A DNA stretch of 64,000 nt from Candidatus Nomurabacteria bacterium (GTDB lineage Bacteria; Patescibacteriota; Minisyncoccia; Phycocordibacterales; UBA9973). Below, one piece after another: positions 1 to 57,900 of this stretch. The position numbers were made by a program, and so were the translations under genes. Each line of letters begins with the position of its first letter. The first letter of the stretch is position 1. Under the pieces are notes generated by a model, which saw only the letters and a list, made by a program, of their open reading frames with translations, did no database searches and had not been told where the DNA came from. The DNA lies in NCBI GenBank assembly GCA_023267375.1, contig JAHFNJ010000003.1, forward strand, positions 28,579 to 92,578, written 5' to 3'.

Positions 1-223
1 ATAGGAGACCAACCTGTCTCACGCACCTACCATCACTTATACTTTCGACGAAGAAAATATAAACGATTTTTCACACATTACTGTGTGGATTGGACTATAA
101 CTTCATCCTTTCGGATGTTTGACATTTAGTCTCTACGGGCATTTATTTTATGAATTTCACAGAAGAGGCAAGTAACTAATTTTACTCACCTTCAAAAATT
201 TAAATTACTAAAAAGTAATTTCG

Positions 224-298
224 TGGGAGCTACCGGGATCGAACCAGTGACCTTCAGATTATCAATCTGACGCTCTGGACCAGCTGAGCTAAACTCCC
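224..298 (-). tRNA. tRNA-Ile (anticodon GAU), discriminator A73, CCA not encoded
   Basis: Reverse complement GGGAGTTTAGCTCAGCTGGTCCAGAGCGTCAGATTGATAATCTGAAGGTCACTGGTTCGATCCCGGTAGCTCCCA folds as a canonical cloverleaf: 7-bp acceptor, D-stem GCTC/GAGC, anticodon loop TTGATAA, T-loop TTCGATC. It lies inside the 23S insertion. Confidence 0.85.
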
Positions 299-526
299 AA
301 TAACAAAGAACAAAATTTTCCTCTGTGAAACTCACAAAACTTATTTCCCTCGGTATTACCCTCGCTTGCGCGTTCGGGTTCCACCGATACTAGTCAACTT
401 CCTACACTATATTTCTATAATGCACCGCCGTGAAGAACGCCACAGCATTCTTACGGTCTAATCTCTTGTTTTAAAAACAATTGCTTTCACAATCTCTCGA
501 CGGGTTCAAACGGGTTCAGAACTCTA

Positions 527-600
527 GTTGCTAGGGGCTAGTTGCTAGGGGCTAGTGAAATTCACTAGAACCTAGGCACTAGAAACTAGAACCTAAAATG
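527..600. repeat. CTAG-rich ~75-bp repeat, copy 1, containing palindrome CTAGTGAAATTCACTAG
   Basis: Its reverse complement aligns over ~70 bp at ~80% identity with 39165-39237 (ttaggttctag…ttctagtgaattYcactagcccctagYaactagcccctag). Confidence 0.6.
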
Positions 601-917
601 CTGAACGGTTTGAACCCAGCTCGCGTATCTTTTTAATTGGCGAACAGCCAAACCCTTGGTAGCTTCTCCACCACCAGGATAAGATGAGCCGACATCGAGG
701 TGCCGAACTCCGCCGTCGCTATGAACGCTTAGGCGGAACTAGCCTGTTATCCCTAGAGTAGCTTTTATCCCTTAATCTTCCACCGCGTCTAATGCGGATG
801 GTCGGTTCACTTGGTTCTGCTTTCGCACCTGCTCGTCATGTACGACTTGCAGTCAAGCCAGCTTGTGCCCATACACTATCGGCACGGTTTCCATTCGCGC
901 CTAGCTGACCTTTAAAG

Positions 918-959
<42 letters not shown>

Positions 960-1267
960 CCCACCAGAAACTGTCTCTTCGAGTTTTTGCCTCGAGGATT
1001 AGAACATATCATAAAATAGAGTGGTATTTCACTGACGAGTAGAATACAGCCGAAACCGTAAACATCAAACCTCTCCCACCTATGCTACGCAATTTTCCAA
1101 TATGCTCAATATCAAGTTGCAGTAAAGCTTCTAGGGTCTTTTCGTCTATCTGCAGGTAACCGGCATCTTCACCGGTACTGTATTTTCACCGAGCTATTCT
1201 CCGAGACAGTTCCCCAGTCATTACACCATTCGTGCACGTCTGAACTTACCAGACAAGGAATTTCGCT

Positions 1268-1470
1268 CAACTATTCCTCTCAGTTGGACTCTCTCTTCAT
1301 CCCGATCGAAATCGGGAGCATGGCGTTGGTCTCTCGTTAACCATGAACGGACTAGCTGCACATTGCTGCGCAGTAGGTAGCGTTGTTTGTTGTAATGATT
1401 TTAAATTAATTGTTTATCGTTTTCTATAACAGTCCCAGTCCTTTGGTGCACATATAAATACATGTACCAA
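1268..1470 (-). other. ~203-nt insertion in 23S at the L1931-equivalent site; putative small group I intron or IVS
   Basis: E. coli-contiguous 'GGTCCTAAGGT|AGCGAAATTCC' is split: plus strand has 'gaatttcgct' (to 1267) then 203 nt then 'accttaggaccgttatagttacggcc' (from 1471). On the RNA strand the upstream exon ends in U and the insert ends in G. Confidence 0.45.
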
Positions 1471-1505
<35 letters not shown>

Positions 1506-3056
1506 CAGGGCTTGTATCAGTCAGCTGTTCTCTGCCTTGCGGCAGAAAACAACCGCCGATAGTTAACCTTCTGGCATTGGTCAGGTGTCACCCCCTATAC
1601 ATCCTCTTACGAGTTCGCAGGGAGCTGTGTTTTTGATAAACAGTTGCCAGGGATACTTTCGCTGCGGCCCCCCGCTACTTTAGATACTTCTATCATAAAG
1701 TAACGGAGAGTTTTTTGTCTCTTACTTTCTTACTCTCCCACTTTTTGGAATTACCCAAAGTAGCGGGGGGCAAGCCTTATTCCGAAGTTACGGCTGCTTT
1801 TTTGCCGAGTTCCTTGGAGAATACTCACTCGTTCGCTTTGGTCTACTCGACCTGACTACCTGTGTCGGTTTACGGTACGGTTTCTGAAATATTAAGCTTA
1901 GAGATTTTTCTTGGAAGCGTGCTTTATAGAATCATCATGGGCGAACCCACAAATTTATGCTCTGCTTGAATCTTCACATTAAAGTGATTGTATCCGGATT
2001 TTCCTAGACACCATTCTTACAGCACAAACAGAAATCCAATAATCTGCTCTATATACTACACTCCGTCCTCCCATCGCATATTTTAGAAGTCATGGAATAT
2101 TAACCATGTATCCATCGGGTGCGGCTTTCGCCATCCCCTTAGGACCGACTAACCCTTGGCTGATCAACATCGCCAAGGAAACCTTAGTCTTTCAGCGTGC
2201 AGGGATCTCACCTGCATTGCGGTTACTTGTGCCAACATTCTTACTTCCGCACGCTCCAGCATGGGTCACCCCTTTGCCTTCAACGCAGAGCGGAATACTC
2301 GCCTACCACTTATTCCGACCTAAGTCGGAAAAAATCCTCAGTTTCGGTACTATACTTAGCCCCGATTATCTGCGGTGCGAAATCTCTTGATGAGTGAGCT
2401 GTTACGCTTTCTTTCAAGGATGGCTGCTTCTAAGCCGACCTCCTCATTGTTTAAGAAATTTCACCTCCTTGACTTGCACTTAGTATAGATTTAGGGACCT
2501 TAAATAGAGATCCGGGCTGTTTCCCTTTTGACTAACGGAGCTTAGCCCCCGTAGTCTAACTGCTATGTTTTAACTTCTGGTATTCGGAGTTTGATAGATT
2601 TAGCGAGATTTCTCCCTGTCCAAATCTTCCAGTGCTCTACCCCCAGAGGGAACACATAACGCTAGCCCAAAAGCTATTTCGGCGAGAACCAGCTATTACC
2701 AGGTTCGATTAGCTTTTCACTCCAACCCACAAGTCATCCGAATGCATTGTACGACATACCGGTTCGGACCTCCTCTACCATTTCTGGTAGATTCATCCTG
2801 CTCATGGGTAGCTCACCTGGCTTCGGGTCTTATGTATGCTACTTATTGTTCGCGCTATTCACACTCGGTTTCCCTATGACTCCATTTTTTTAAAAACTTA
2901 GTCAGCAACATACATAAACTCGTTGGCTCATTCTTCAATAGGCACGCCGTGACGGTCTGCACTTCACGCAGAAAAAATTCTGCACAAAGTGCAAACCGCT
3001 CCGACTCCTTGTAAGCACATGGTTTCAGATCTATTTCACTGTCCTTATCGGACTAT

Positions 3057-3092
<36 letters not shown>

Positions 3093-4174
3093 ATCTCTAA
3101 GAGTATTTAGCCTTGCCGGTTAGTTCCGGCGGATTCCTCCGAGCTATTCGTGTCTCGAAGTACTCAAGAACGACAACAGAAGAGTCAGTAATATTTTCAC
3201 GTACGGGGCCATCACCCTCTTTGGCGTTGCTTTCCAGCAACTTCCGTTAATATACTGTTTTGTAACTCTCCTCGAATAAACGATGTTGTCGCCTTACAAC
3301 CCCGATTCTTTTTCTTGCGAAAAACAATCGGTTTGGGCTTCTCCGCTTTCGCTCGCCGCTACTTACGGAATACAAATTTGTTTCTTTTCCTCCAGGTACT
3401 GAGATGTTTCACTTCCCTGGGTGAGCGTCACTCTCTTGCGAGAGTAATTACTGAGGTTTACTCAGTAGGGTTTCCCCATTCAGAAATCTCCGGATCAAAG
3501 GTTACTCGGCACCTCCCCGAAGCTTATCGCAGCCACGTTACGTCTTTCATCGCCTCTTAGAATCTAGGCATCCACCATATGCTCTTGTTTCCTATTAGGA
3601 AACTTAAAAACCACATATATTTCTACAGACCGCTCCGTAGAGTATATGCATACACTTTACTTTTTTTGCCCTATCCTCGATGCGTCTGAAAAGACCCTAA
3701 AAACTTCCTGAAAATACAAGAAGTAATTGCACCGGAATAGGATTTACCCAACATTATTGCTTTTAAAAGCAATAATGTTATGGCTTATTTGTCAAAGAGA
3801 CTGGCATTCGATCATTATCACTACTTACTAAAAACTTCAGCCGAGGGAACTAAAAAATCGCCTTTCGGCGACATCTCAAAACGCAAGGTTTTGATTAGTA
3901 TCGCCTCGGTTTCTGTAATTTAGAAGTAATATTCATACAGCCCAAAGAGTATATAGGAAGCGAAAAGCGATGTCAAGTTTCTCTCGGTAGTCCCACCAAA
4001 AAGCACGAATATCTGCCTGCTGGCAGATTTCTCTACTCGAAACGCCTTTCTGCGTAAGGCTTTTTGCGGGACTACCTCGCTCTGGTGAGCAGAGCCTTAT
4101 TTCTTGATTAATGACTTCGATTAAGTTATCCACCATTTTATTCACATGCACAAATCTCTCTTTTTATGGCAAGC

Positions 4175-4225: not shown

Positions 4226-4912
4226 TTAGCCTCGGTGCATGTCGCCTTTTACTTTTTCGATAGCGCGAGCAGCAGCTTCCTTTCCACCAAGACCGAACGC
4301 CAAACCGCCAGCGATGGCAAGCATAGCAATGATACCAGTGAAGAGTACCTGCATGAACTGTGCAGCAATACCGAGTTCAGACAAAGCGATGATGAGAGCG
4401 AAAATCCAGATTGCGTAGTAAGTGATTGTGCCCATCATGTTTGCGCTGTGTACGTTTGCAGCTTTTGCACTGCCAGTCACAACCTTCTTCATAGATTCAG
4501 CAACAACACTTGCAACGATCAAGATGAGCGCAGCAATGATAACCTGTGGAAGATAGTTCAACACTACTTCGCGAAGGAAATCATTAACTTGTGTGAGGTG
4601 AAGTACTTCAAGAGAAGTCATCAAGAACACAACGACGATGAACCACTTAACGAGACCGCCAATAAAACCGCCGACATTCAATTTCATACCAGCGCGAGAA
4701 AGCATTTCACTAGCACCAGCACTTTCAAAAAGTTTATCGATTTTGAGCGCGCTGATGACCTGTGCGAGAGCCTTGCCGACAACTGAGCCCACCATCCATC
4801 CTACGATGAAGACGATGACGGCGATAATAAGATTTGGTACGAAGCCAATAAATCCCAACCAAAGAGATTGGAGAGATGTAGTAAAGACTTCACCCCATGT
4901 GTTAATCAACAT
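4226..4912 (-). CDS. Multi-pass membrane protein with MscS-like conserved TM-helix repeats (putative mechanosensitive channel family)
   Basis: 228-aa ORF with several hydrophobic helices, GxxxG-rich; terminator immediately downstream. Confidence 0.55.
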   Translation of the reverse strand: MLINTWGEVFTTSLQSLWLGFIGFVPNLIIAVIVFIVGWMVGSVVGKALAQVISALKIDKLFESAGASEMLSRAGMKLNVGGFIGGLVKWFIVVVFLMTSLEVLHLTQVNDFLREVVLNYLPQVIIAALILIVASVVAESMKKVVTGSAKAANVHSANMMGTITYYAIWIFALIIALSELGIAAQFMQVLFTGIIAMLAIAGGLAFGLGGKEAAARAIEKVKGDMHRG

Positions 4913-39159: not shown

Positions 39160-39164
39160 ACTTA

Positions 39165-39237
39165 GGTTCTAGGTTCTAGGTTCTAGGTTCTAGTGAATTC
39201 CACTAGCTCCCTAGTAACTAGCCCCTAGTTAACTGTT
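39165..39237. repeat. CTAG-rich repeat, copy 2 (tandem ttctagg ×4 then palindrome CTAGTGAATTCCACTAG then cccctag units)
   Basis: Aligns with the reverse complement of 527-600; sits in the ssb-rpsR intergenic spacer. Confidence 0.6.
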
Positions 39238-54942: not shown

Positions 54943-57900
54943 CTACTTTTCAATTGAAATCTCTGCCACACCAGCCTCAACAGAAATATTTTTTGCCGTA
55001 ACCGTTTTCTTGAGTTCGTCGCCAAACGTCGCCGCTAGTTCTTTGTATGAATCTGGGAGCTTAATATTGATGCTGTCGCTTGGCATTAAACCTTTCTGTT
55101 TACGCAAATCTTGAATAGCGCGCACAAGTTCACGGAAATCCCCTTCTTTTTTGAGCTCTGGAGTCATCTCGGGATCAAGTAGGACTTGGTCTTTCAGCGA
55201 ATCACTCTCCACGACTTCTTTCACATTGAGTTCATCTTTTAAAACATCTTTGAAATACGTCTCGAGTTTTATATTTGGCACAGTAACCTTCTGGAGTGGC
55301 TGACGAACAGGAATCCCAGCTTTTTGCCTTTCTTTTAGCCCCATAGATGCGAAGTCCCGAACATTACTCATTTGAGTAATTAATTCTTTTTCCACCTTCC
55401 CACCTTTAGGCCAACTGGAAAGATGCACACTTTCTGTATCTGATTCTGCCCGCAGTTTCAGCCATATATCTTCCGCGGCAAACGGCGCAGCAGGAGCCAT
55501 GATCTGCGCTACTGTTTTAAGCACAAAATAAAGTGTCTGTTTTGCGTCAGCATCCCCTTCTTTGATACGGTCACGTGAACGACGTAAGTACCAAGTAGAA
55601 AGATCATCGATAAAATCTCGAAGTGCACGCACTGGTTCCATAAGTTTGTAACCGTCCAAGCTCTCAGTGGTAAGCGCTACAAGCTGATTAAGTCGAGCAA
55701 GAATCCATTGATCGAGAACATTGCTAGTTTCTAGGTTATAGTTGCTAGTTTCTAGTGAAGGGTCACGATAGAGTTCATAAAATGCCAACACATTGTAGAG
55801 CAAACCGAATACCTGGCGATGCAATTCCATCACTGTTTTCTCATCGTAATTTTTTGAATCCCCTGGCTGGTTCACCGAGTACATCCAAAGGCGCAGTGTA
55901 TCAACACCAAATTTTTCAATCTGGAAAAATGGTTCGACAATGTTACCGATTGACTTCGACATTTTCTTGCCATCTTTATCGAGTAAGTGTCCTAAGCAAA
56001 TCGCATTCTTAAATGGCGTACCGCATTCCATAAGCGTACCGACAGCAAGCAGTGTATAGAACCATCCGCGGGTTTGATCAATAGCTTCAGAAATGAAATC
56101 TGCTGGGTAGCCATGTGATTTTTTGAGCAATCCACTCTTCGGCTGAAAGGTATCTTTGTTTTCAAACGGATAGTGATCTTGGGCAAACGGCATAGAACCA
56201 GAATCAAACCACACATCCATCACTTCTTTTACACGACGAAATTCTTTGCCGTCTTTTTCAAGCACCACTTCATCAATATATGGCCGATGCGGATCAAGCT
56301 CGTAGTTCTCATTGTGCGGAAGTGGGACGAATGGAACATCATAAAAAACAGCATTTTCAATGTAATGAAAATCTTTCTTTCCCCGGATCATATCGAGTGC
56401 CTGCTCAGCACTATACCCATGAGCACCAACGACCATGAGCCAAGCAGGTCCGCCATGGGTCACAATCAAAATATTTTTATTGCTGTATTTTTGTTCTAGC
56501 TCATATAGCAATTCACTTACGCGTTTACGAACATCGCTATATGATTCGCCTCCTGGAAGAACTGCAGAAAAATTATCCGCCGTCTTTGGAAATTTATCAT
56601 GATACTCTTTCCATGTCGTGCCACTAAACGTACCGACACGCATCTCGTGGAGCCGAGCATCCGTACTCACTGATTCCTCAGGCAAGCCAAGAACACCTCG
56701 TACGATATCTGTTGTTTCTTTCGTGCGTATAAACGGTGAGGCAACAATCAAATCTATTTTTTTGTTTTTCAATAACTCTGCCGCTTCTTGTACCTGCGAT
56801 TTTCCATGGTCAGTCAAATGATCGTTTACTGCATCTTGTTTATCGCTGATCAAACCTTGCAAATTATGCTCTGATTCACCGTGACGCATCACGATATAGT
56901 TATTCCCGCTTTTCTTTGTATATTTTTTGAGTGTTTCAAATGAATCAACAACAATGCGCTCGCCATCAGCGTTCTGCCACACTGGCATCGGTGTTCCCCA
57001 GTACCGCTCACGAGAAATCGCCCAGTCTTTCACCTCGCGAATCCACTCGCCGAAACGCCCTTCTTTGATATGAGATGGCTCCCAATTTATCTTTTCATTT
57101 TCAGCGACGAGATCATCCCGAAGCGCCGACATTTTGATGTACCACGAATCGCGTGCGTAGTAGATGAGCGGCGTCTTACAGCGCCAGCAATGTGGATAGC
57201 TGTGCGTGTATTGTTCTTTCGCAAAAAAGTTTCCGTGCTCTTGGAGATATTTCAACACCTCAACAGAAGTCTTGAGACCATTGTCTTCCCTATCTTTTGC
57301 TGGCATTCCCTCGAGACTACCCGTGCCTTTTATAAAATGTCCGGATTCATCAACGAGATGAAATTTCGGCAACCCAACTTTCGAACCAAGCTCGAAGTCG
57401 TCCTGACCGTACATCACGGCTGTGTGCACGATGCCGGTACCATCTTCGGTGTTTACGAAATCTGCCGCGTATACTTTGTATGCGTTTTGTAACTTATCGT
57501 CACCCTTATCCAATTCAGAGAGATATGGATAGAGTGGTTCATATTCCGTGCCACTAAGTTCTTTACCGAAATATCTACCTGATACTTCGTATAAGGTTTT
57601 TTCTGCTCCAGGTTTTGGAGATCCACTAAGAGTCCTTCCAAAAACACCATCACTATTTATTAACTCTAAACCAAAAATTTTATTGACCAAATCCCATGCC
57701 AGGATATAATTTTCTACACCTGAATTGTTTGTAACTTTTACTTTTACATAGTCGATTTTCTCACCCACAGCCAAAGCAACATTCCCAGGCAAGGTCCAAG
57801 GTGTTGTGGTCCATGCAAGAAAATAAGTATTCTCATTTCCGACTACTTTAAATTTCGCGATAACTGACAAATCTTTTACATCTGCATAGCCCTGCGCGAG

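Follow-up and report, generated by a model that had tools for sequence, protein, structure and literature searches.

A 64,000-nucleotide (nt) stretch of contig JAHFNJ010000003.1, from an uncultured and probably ultra-small bacterium, referred to hereafter as the window, carries a 23S ribosomal RNA (rRNA) gene that is interrupted exactly after the position equivalent to Escherichia coli U2593 (site L2593) by an insert housing a transfer RNA gene, tRNA-Ile(GAU). As judged from their sequences, this insert and its relatives are a genuine family of group I introns, in which a long P6a helix ends in a loop, called here the cargo slot, that in most members holds a tRNA or a tRNA-derived unit. That an rRNA intron family should regularly carry such a unit does not appear to have been described before. 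The best explanation for the arrangement found in the window, and one that we consider probable, is that of a group I intron without endonuclease, inserted at U2593 and belonging to this long-P6a family, whose slot contains a canonical tRNA-Ile(GAU) and which would be spliced from the 23S transcript and release the tRNA. Chance explains neither the insertion site, nor the insert, nor the tRNA, nor a CTAG-rich repeat located close to the 5' splice site.

The limits of the insert were set by blastn against the rrlH gene of E. coli K-12, with which the colinear match stops at window position 605, equivalent to U2593. The motif GGGUUUAGAACGUCGUGAGACAG begins at E. coli position 2581, so that window position 23 (a C) corresponds to C2594, and joining 605 to 23 brings GGGUUCAAACCGU next to CGUGAGACAGG, colinear with GGGUUUAGAACGU followed by CGUGAGACAG in E. 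coli. The insert extends from 604 to 24 (604->24, the arrow denoting here and below the direction of the minus strand) and the gene resumes at 23->1. The initial annotation, made from the window sequence, had correctly located the interruption at L2593, but its boundaries (612->28) were placed too far out, by 4-8 nt; of the positions 1-27 that it attributed to the 23S, 23->1 are equivalent to E. coli 2594-2616 and colinear after joining. The interrupted gene is composed as follows:

605..3598, minus strand: 5' exon of the 23S rRNA gene, E. coli positions 1-2593 (Rfam LSU_rRNA_bacteria, 2054 bits)
24..604, minus strand: group I intron of 581 nt at site L2593, with no homing-endonuclease open reading frame (ORF), beginning with UCAGCA and ending with GGUAGGUG, its last base, G24, being the omega-G
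1..23, minus strand: start of the 23S 3' exon, E. coli positions 2594-2616, ending at the window edge (sequence CGUGAGACAGGUUGGUCUCCUAU)

The window covers 23 nt of the 3' exon, and the further course of this exon was taken from two relatives, L007 and L009. The 23 nt (CGUGAGACAGGUUGGUCUCCUAU) are identical in L009 and differ by one base in L007, and in both loci the 23S runs on past the intron, with the same 3' exon of ~300 nt followed by a 5S rRNA. The contigs retrieved through the nearest protein (4226-4912) are short and all end within the 23S; genes identical to the neighbouring ones are present in Logan SRR14366796 and ENA ERZ27279977. According to Rfam, the window encodes a single bacterial large-subunit (LSU) rRNA, on the minus strand, and neither Rfam nor ARAGORN detected a small-subunit (SSU) rRNA or any tRNA besides tRNA-Ile(GAU) in the 64 kb. 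The absence of 16S rRNA, 5S rRNA and further tRNA from the 60 kb located upstream of the 23S (window 3599-64000) puts this gene outside any classical 16S-tRNA-23S operon. The related loci that reach upstream of their 23S likewise have no 16S or other tRNA there.

The insert displays the successive elements of a group I ribozyme, all on the minus strand:

424..432: internal guide sequence CACG-GCGGU, directly 5' of P2
404..423: P2 hairpin with a GAAA loop (minimum free energy, MFE, fold)
393..398: 5' strand of P3, GUUGAC, pairing with GUCAAAC (123->117) with one bulged A
350..387: P4-P5 domain, with P4 UCGGU/ACCGA, P5 ACCC/GGGU and the L5 hairpin CGC-GCAA-GCG (covariation, MFE fold)
137..349: P6 (GGG 349-347 with CCC 139-137) and P6a (inverted repeat, covariation)
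339->320 with 166->146: P6a helix of ~20 base pairs (bp), whose terminal loop, 319->167, is the cargo slot (inverted repeat)
73..133: 3' half of the catalytic core (Rfam Intron_gpI alignment, covariation, coordinates checked by script)
133->127 with 97->93: P7, GAGACUA with UAGUC, in the 3' half of the core together with P3' (123->117)
116->105, 104->98 and 86->73: P8 AUCC-GAAA-GGAU, J8/7 GAAGUUA and P9 ACACA-GUAA-UGUGU, also in the 3' half of the core

The guide pairs with both exons. P1 associates G428-U424 with exon positions U605-A609 (wobble U605.G428, then G606-C427, C607-G426, C608-G425 and A609-U424), and P10 associates guide positions C432-G429 with C23-G20 of the 3' exon. The guide begins with eight bases (CACGGCGG) that do not vary among the members including the region (12/12), and in each of the 13 distinct members of the family the exon ends in U and the intron in G. 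We infer that CACGGCGG is the catalytic guide from this invariance, from its position abutting P2 and from the U.G pair and the P10 that it provides. The place of P2 is taken in the relatives by another hairpin, UCGCA-UUCG-UGCGA in the case of L009.

The helices of the core were compared among 11 distinct introns including their 5' half. As MAFFT misaligned the 5' half of L009 when whole introns were used, helices were taken by sequence anchors and assembled in a gap-free pseudo-alignment, leaving out L022, whose row is that of L009, and L024, which is cut at its 5' end. Overall, 97.6% of the cells are paired and 20 of the 44 pairs change on both sides, values that none of 500 shuffles reached; partners slid out of register pair in 28-42% of the cells. 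All six pairs of P3 are changed on both sides with 100% of the cells paired, compensatory pairs amount to 7/7 in the distal part of P6a and 4/5 in P9, and three are found in P4/P5, where 91.9% of the cells are paired. The MFE fold of the window intron has a z-score of -10.7 and recovers P2, P4-P5, P6/P6a, P8 and P9, and the strongest matches to the Rfam Intron_gpI model are AGACUAAA (P7) and AUAGUC (J8/7-P7'). The family is devoid of P7.1/P7.2, P3' standing directly after P7.

The statement of the initial annotation that the insert encodes no ORF is borne out: the longest start-to-stop ORF overlapping it has 47 aa and overlaps the tRNA, and there is no intron-encoded LAGLIDADG ORF. In the introns of the family, stop-free stretches, which were not compared with protein family models, do not exceed 117 aa and are all antisense. 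Intervening sequences of the RNase III type are simple extended stems at the tip of a helix, classically helices 25 and 45, that are excised without ligation; the insert of the window lies in the peptidyl-transferase loop, it contains a group I core and its ends do not pair with each other.

The cargo slot of the window intron contains two kinds of elements:

224..298, minus strand, that of the rRNA: tRNA-Ile(GAU) cassette (Rfam tRNA, ARAGORN, stem count)
167..221, minus strand: two hairpins after the tRNA, 221->202 (UUUU loop) and 190->167 (MFE fold)

The tRNA had been reported in the initial annotation at 224-298, on the rRNA strand and with four intact stems and A73, and both programs agree with this description. 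It reaches 68.3 bits with the Rfam tRNA model (E = 9e-13, threshold 29) and is called Ile(gat) at 298->223 by ARAGORN, with stems of 7/4/5/5 bp all paired and A73; 21 of 21 pairs are formed in the stem count. The invariant positions U8, A14, G18G19, U33, A37, G53-U54-U55-C56, A58, C61 and A73 are present, an alignment with E. coli ileV having also been used to read the sequence, CCA is not encoded, A73 being followed by CGA, and a U-rich leader (319->299) directly precedes the tRNA. The terminal loop of P6a, which joins the two strands of this helix, contains the unit, whose flanks are single-stranded. One consensus match considered as an internal promoter for the tRNA (434->406, 9/12) is weak, at chance level, and was rejected. 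In E. coli, the identity of tRNA-Ile depends on GAU, A37/A38, A73, C4-G69, U12-A23 and C29-G41. The window tRNA has GAU, U33, A37, A38, A73 and U12-A23; its pairs 4-69 and 29-41 are A-U, not C-G. It is the only fully canonical cassette of the family and the one with the best Rfam tRNA score, and on balance it would probably yield a tRNA-Ile that can be charged.

Relatives of the intron were searched with two patterns, both of which match the window sequence. The pattern used on a genome collection combined the tRNA T-loop, P7 and J8/7, and the one used on metagenomes combined the 3' strand of P6a, P6 and P7, with no tRNA required. The genome scan returned 16 hits, about the number estimated for chance, among which two are real relatives, L007 from a Nomurabacteria metagenome-assembled genome (MAG) and L009 from a MAG of the Parcubacteria group; in both, the intron is at the same 23S site and has a tRNA-like unit at the same place. 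The other 14 hits were discarded as ordinary tRNAs without rRNA nearby. The metagenome scan gave 13 loci, all at L2593 (13/13) with the same flanking exon motifs, and a scan of viral contigs for the intron family gave no hit. Altogether the 15 homologous loci represent 12 further distinct introns, that is 13 with that of the window, ranging from 306 to 812 nt. L007 and L009 are the only loci from named genomes, and both are bacteria of the Candidate Phyla Radiation (CPR).

These introns differ by the content of their P6a slot. L020 and L027 have an empty slot and only a short P6a hairpin. A single tRNA-like unit, or a pair of them, fills the slot in the window, L007, L009, L021, L022, L024, L026, L028, L030 and L031, and L025 has an aberrant unit with an acceptor-like stem. 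With a pattern that did not require a tRNA, tRNA-like units are thus clearly present between the P6a strands of 10 of the 13 distinct introns, L025 adding one more, aberrant. The initial annotation had considered a tRNA in an rRNA insert as a rare oddity; it is not a one-off, as the slot at the tip of P6a recurs in relatives, and the impression of novelty stands in so far as we found no published description. The flanks of the unit in L007 are almost base for base those of the window, the first hairpin after the tRNA being identical, and analogous hairpins follow the unit in L009, L022, L026 and L031. Nine units were compared for their stems: despite very different sequences, pairing is kept in 186 of 189 cells, with compensatory changes in 18 of 21 pairs. 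Their scores with the Rfam tRNA model go from 68.3 bits in the window down to below threshold. By blastn of the cassettes against E. coli genomes, L022 alone gave a clear assignment: along its entire length, its unit has 80% identity to tRNA-Asn of E. coli (E = 1e-8), with the anticodon AUU. The match of the L021 unit, to tRNA-Val (E = 0.1), was uninformative. The L009 unit can be aligned with tRNA-Glu of E. coli, GCCA end included, and has an anticodon loop of 13 nt. The units derive from different types of tRNA (Ile, Asn-like, Glu-like and others), and the slot was apparently refilled over the history of the family with different tRNA-derived units whose stems are kept and whose anticodons decay.

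Four cassettes have an A at position 34, those of L022 (7772-7847), L021 (381-453), L028 (1403-1478) and L030 (428-501), with the anticodons AUU, AAA, ACA and AAC, respectively. Each is one G-to-A transition away from a standard bacterial anticodon for the same amino acid (GUU, GAA, GCA and GAC), which could reflect a mutation bias or a selection to disable decoding. Tandem double units occupy the slot in L009 (~2775-2870), L021 and L031, the second units being more degenerate. The extra unit ends with CACUACC-G-CCA in L009 and with CCCCCUCC-G-CCA in L031, that is with an acceptor-like stem and G-CCA, not found in L021. The loci L022 (7552-8152) and L025 (3828-4330) have 23S exons that are 99.4% identical and introns that are identical up to P6a, followed by unrelated slot contents and different P8 loops; the 160-nt P8 insert of L022 includes an 18-nt exact match to the 5' domain of its own 23S. 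Since the exons are nearly identical and the cargo unrelated, cargo turnover is faster than the divergence of the host rRNA, and these two loci suggest that peripheral loops quickly exchange or capture fragments of host RNA genes.

According to the explanation we favour, the 23S would be transcribed from a promoter of its own, and the intron and the tRNA, which lie on the same strand, would be co-transcribed with it. A candidate promoter for this 23S transcript unlinked to a 16S gene is located ~350 nt upstream of the 23S 5' end (3976->3948):

3948..3976, minus strand: promoter-like site TTGACA-17-TATACT, with 11 of 12 consensus positions (identified by consensus match only)

The core would then fold and the guide (432->424) would form P1, with U2593 facing G428, and P10; a guanosine-initiated splicing reaction would ligate U2593 to C2594 and restore the peptidyl-transferase loop. 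RNase P would cut at the 5' end of the cassette and RNase Z or exonucleases would act at its 3' end, either on the excised intron or on the precursor. A CCA-adding enzyme, needed because CCA is not encoded, would complete the tRNA, which could then be charged by isoleucyl-tRNA synthetase, and the same RNase cuts would open the intron to decay. The first of the two readings offered in the initial annotation, a group I intron co-transcribing a tRNA, is the one supported by the exon U, the terminal G, the P1 and P10 pairings of the guide and the covarying core.

Several observations weigh against this explanation, and those that concern splicing come first. The 5' splice site is embedded in a long hairpin:

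502..617, minus strand: long hairpin containing the 5' splice site (inverted repeats, MFE fold, covariation)

In this hairpin, exon positions 617->608 (GGGUUCAAAC) pair with intron positions 511->502, and G606-G601 with 519->514. The structure is stable and covarying, and it pairs the splice-site U605 with A515 and not with a G, partly competing with P1, so that splicing may need a rearrangement or helper proteins. It is present in all full-length members (12/12), with 23S positions 2581-2590 paired with the intron motif GUYUGAAYCC and the junction paired with the intron segment that comes next, U2593 being opposite an A, and the covariation of exon A/G at E. coli position 2588 with intron U/C, together with many compensatory changes in the upper stem, shows that the hairpin is real. 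Its overlap with P1 is limited to three pairs. The hairpin could be a competing structure that delays splicing, or could form a pseudoknot in which its lower stem is stacked under P1; it may serve to delay splicing, to hold the 5' exon or to prevent misfolding of the peptidyl-transferase strand. The long hairpin was also considered as the catalytic P1 and rejected, its splice-site U facing an A and its distance to P2 being 50-200 nt.

Further reservations concern the structural model itself. P1, P10, P6 and P7 are invariant, and covariation neither supports nor opposes them, the lack of covariation in P1 and P10 resulting from exons that do not vary. In the helix alignment, J3/4 was given the length (2 or 3 nt) with which P3 pairs best, and a bulged A was dropped from the window row, two choices that slightly favour the model. 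The comparison with group I covariance models, which the initial annotation had proposed as a check, gave a mixed outcome. The core, the U.G pair at the 5' splice site and the terminal G are in place, but the hit obtained for the window in a permissive Rfam search (226->71, E = 7e-9) reaches 41.5 bits for a gathering threshold of 50, the 5' half being mis-assigned owing to the 150-nt cargo. L020, at 314 nt the shortest cargo-less homologue tested, scores 61.9 bits with the same model, above the threshold.

The remaining objections bear on the role of the tRNA. Sister cassettes have the anticodons AAA, AUU, ACA, AAC or GCC, or loops of 6, 13 and 16 nt, and two units also lack the D-loop GG and the T-loop C56. 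As most of them cannot decode, the function of the units at the level of the family would not be decoding; no sign of anticodon selection was seen when the anticodons and loop sizes of the sister cassettes were compared. Blastn of the window tRNA against E. coli genomes returned no specific tRNA-Ile match, only a weak hit to a plasmid tRNA-Thr (E = 0.6), and the GAU cassette could be the product of a recent conversion, still untouched by decay. These elements lead to the main alternative, with the same intron anatomy and a unit that would not be a working decoder: the cassette would only be a tRNA-shaped handle, its Ile(GAU) identity being incidental. Such a handle might let RNase P and RNase Z enter, linearise the excised intron and dispose of it; it might help folding by attracting a tRNA-binding protein, or protect the intron from loss. 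It would agree with the compensatory changes that maintain the stems of the sister introns while their anticodon loops are disabled, with the A34 of the Asn-derived unit, with the tandem units of three introns, more degenerate in second position and still ending in an acceptor-like stem and GCCA in L009 and L031, and with the quick cargo turnover seen between L022 and L025. The window unit itself speaks against it, having every canonical feature of a tRNA with the standard bacterial Ile anticodon, U33, A37 and A73; any product of RNase P and RNase Z would here be a chargeable tRNA, which makes it hard to separate a simple handle from a tRNA gene. We regard this alternative as a serious one and nonetheless as rather unlikely.

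Considering that the tRNA shape is conserved and the anticodon is not, decoding is a less likely selected role of the units than their recognition by factors that process or bind tRNAs. A wider proposal, which we put forward tentatively and hold to be doubtful as a whole, would make of the tRNA-shaped unit a selected domain, either a processing and decay handle for RNase P and RNase Z or a retention device, that is refilled by gene conversion from host tRNA genes and whose anticodon is then disabled. In that proposal the window cassette may be the tRNA-Ile(GAU) of the cell, possibly its sole one.

The second reading of the initial annotation was a permanently fragmented 23S, in which RNase P, RNase Z or RNase III would remove the insert without ligation and leave the rRNA split at 2593, in the manner of the mitochondrial "tRNA punctuation". 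The conservation of the tRNA shapes whatever the anticodon is what would be expected of processing signals, CPR 23S genes are known to contain insertions other than introns (PMC11270868), and the 5' splice site lies in a stable hairpin with a U-A pair. Yet compensatory changes maintain a complete group I core, the pairing of the guide with both exons is invariant and the terminal G is found in every member. The tRNA-less introns of L020 and L027 keep the core, and that of L020 passes the Rfam group I threshold, a situation that speaks against fragmentation as the main mechanism. Moreover, cuts at the tRNA borders would leave ~300 nt and ~200 nt of intron on rRNA pieces in the peptidyl-transferase centre. 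Fragmentation consequently appears very unlikely. A misjoin of a tRNA-bearing fragment into the 23S during assembly or binning, conceivable in that rRNA genes often break or mis-join in metagenome assemblies and that other assemblies of the same organism stop inside the 23S gene, is hardly credible given that the architecture, with conserved flanks on both sides of the unit, recurs in 15 other loci from different projects, two of them named MAGs, that one and the same intron is found in L007, L019 and L023, from three datasets, and that the tRNA lies between the strands of the covarying P6a helix.

Group I introns carry homing-endonuclease genes, and rarely a second ribozyme, in their outer loops. 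The known L2593 introns, in the chloroplast of Chlamydomonas (Cr.LSU with I-CreI, whose ORF presumably lies in L6), in Synechococcus/Thermosynechococcus and at position 2593 in CPR, share with the present family the insertion point, the group I ribozyme and the presence of cargo in a peripheral loop. They have a LAGLIDADG ORF and, for the cyanobacterial ones, P7.1/P7.2, whereas the family described here has neither and combines a 20-bp P6a with a tRNA-derived cargo. The group I introns of CPR 23S genes at 2593 usually come with LAGLIDADG genes (Tsurumaki et al. 2024, PMC11270868), and the cyanobacterial L2593 introns have P7.1/P7.2 elements and a LAGLIDADG ORF (PMC1995217). A 2026 study on Patescibacteria reported the converse case of introns inside tRNA genes (PMC13011429). 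No description of an rRNA group I intron that houses a tRNA or a tRNA-like unit came up in full-text literature searches, and tRNA is mentioned neither in the text nor in one supplement of the survey that treats the rRNA insertions of CPR most comprehensively (PMC11270868).

Other systems offer partial parallels. The tRNA-Ile(GAU) and tRNA-Ala(UGC) genes of bacterial rrn spacers, such as ileV-alaV upstream of rrlH in E. coli, are co-transcribed with rRNA and released by tRNA-processing enzymes, as would be the case of the window tRNA; they are located in the 16S-23S spacer, whereas the latter is in an intron within the 23S, with no 16S or spacer tRNA in the 60 kb upstream. In the twin-ribozyme introns of Didymium and Naegleria rDNA, the GIR1 lariat-capping ribozyme is carried as a peripheral-loop cargo. 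These introns likewise house a second, independently folding RNA in a peripheral loop of an rRNA group I ribozyme, but their cargo is a ribozyme that matures a homing-endonuclease mRNA, and here it is a tRNA or tRNA-like unit without ORF. In mitochondrial tRNA punctuation, MALAT1 mascRNA and plant mitochondrial t-elements, RNase P and RNase Z recognise an embedded tRNA shape regardless of anticodon, which matches the pattern of the sister cassettes; those elements stand between genes or at 3' ends in eukaryotes and organelles, whereas the present units are in the loop of a bacterial ribozyme and their processing is predicted. Eukaryotic intronic snoRNAs and the box C/D RNA of the archaeal tRNA-Trp intron are also small stable RNAs housed in and released from an intron, with a type of intron, a cargo and a domain of life that all differ from those considered here.

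The arrangement connects the splicing of rRNA with the enzymes that process tRNA, in bacteria whose genomes are minimal. It also makes it possible to ask, in a natural setting, whether RNase P and RNase Z act before splicing, cutting introns in half, or afterwards, disposing of the excised ones. It suggests a way in which an intron devoid of endonuclease might persist, through a cargo that could be useful or essential. If it is true that the window cassette is the sole tRNA-Ile(GAU), correct translation would depend on a 23S intron and this intron could not be lost. The family also has consequences for genome annotation, as tRNA finders will report, within the 23S genes of CPR, "tRNA genes" whose anticodons are impossible, and an authentic tRNA-Ile may escape notice or be masked as rRNA.

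The CTAG-rich repeat that the initial annotation had pointed out in the insert is real and forms the tip of the 5' splice-site hairpin:

514..606, strand not assigned: CTAG-rich palindromic repeat at the tip of the 5' splice-site hairpin (tandem and inverted repeats)

Its 14-nt units, at 524-556 and 563-590, form the arms of a 46-nt inverted repeat (514-559/561-606). A second copy, 89.6% identical over 67 nt, is located between ORFs at 39162-39228, and a partial copy is found inside an ORF of 1195 aa (55721-55759). The CTAG tetranucleotide is otherwise depleted in the window, with 93 occurrences for ~240 expected. The repeat is a dispersed palindromic element unrelated to the intron, and looks like a small element that is mobile or similar to repetitive extragenic palindromic (REP) sequences.

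Two other insertions were observed in the 23S gene of the window. An insert of 203 nt on the minus strand (1470->1268) is located exactly after E. coli U1931, at the classic L1931 intron site. Its 5' exon ends with AAGGU, and the insert starts with UUGGUA and ends with AGUUG; its match to the Rfam group I model spans the whole insert and is weak (14.7 bits, E = 0.39), and the inserts of its relatives at this site range from 0 to ~735 nt. This insert probably represents a group I intron that is compact or degenerate. The other insertion, also on the minus strand (~1675-1767), is a hairpin expansion of ~79-93 nt in domain III/IV of the 23S, with a GC-rich closing stem CCCCCCGCUACUU...AAGUAGCGGGGGG. 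It is missing from the 23S of E. coli and from related CPR 23S genes, and looks like a helix extension of the intervening-sequence type. Several insertions per 23S gene, three in the present case, are typical of CPR (PMC11270868). The 23S exons are 72-95% identical to the 23S of the related loci, the two CPR MAGs among them, and these identities, the named relatives and the insertions make a member of the Patescibacteria (CPR) the probable host.

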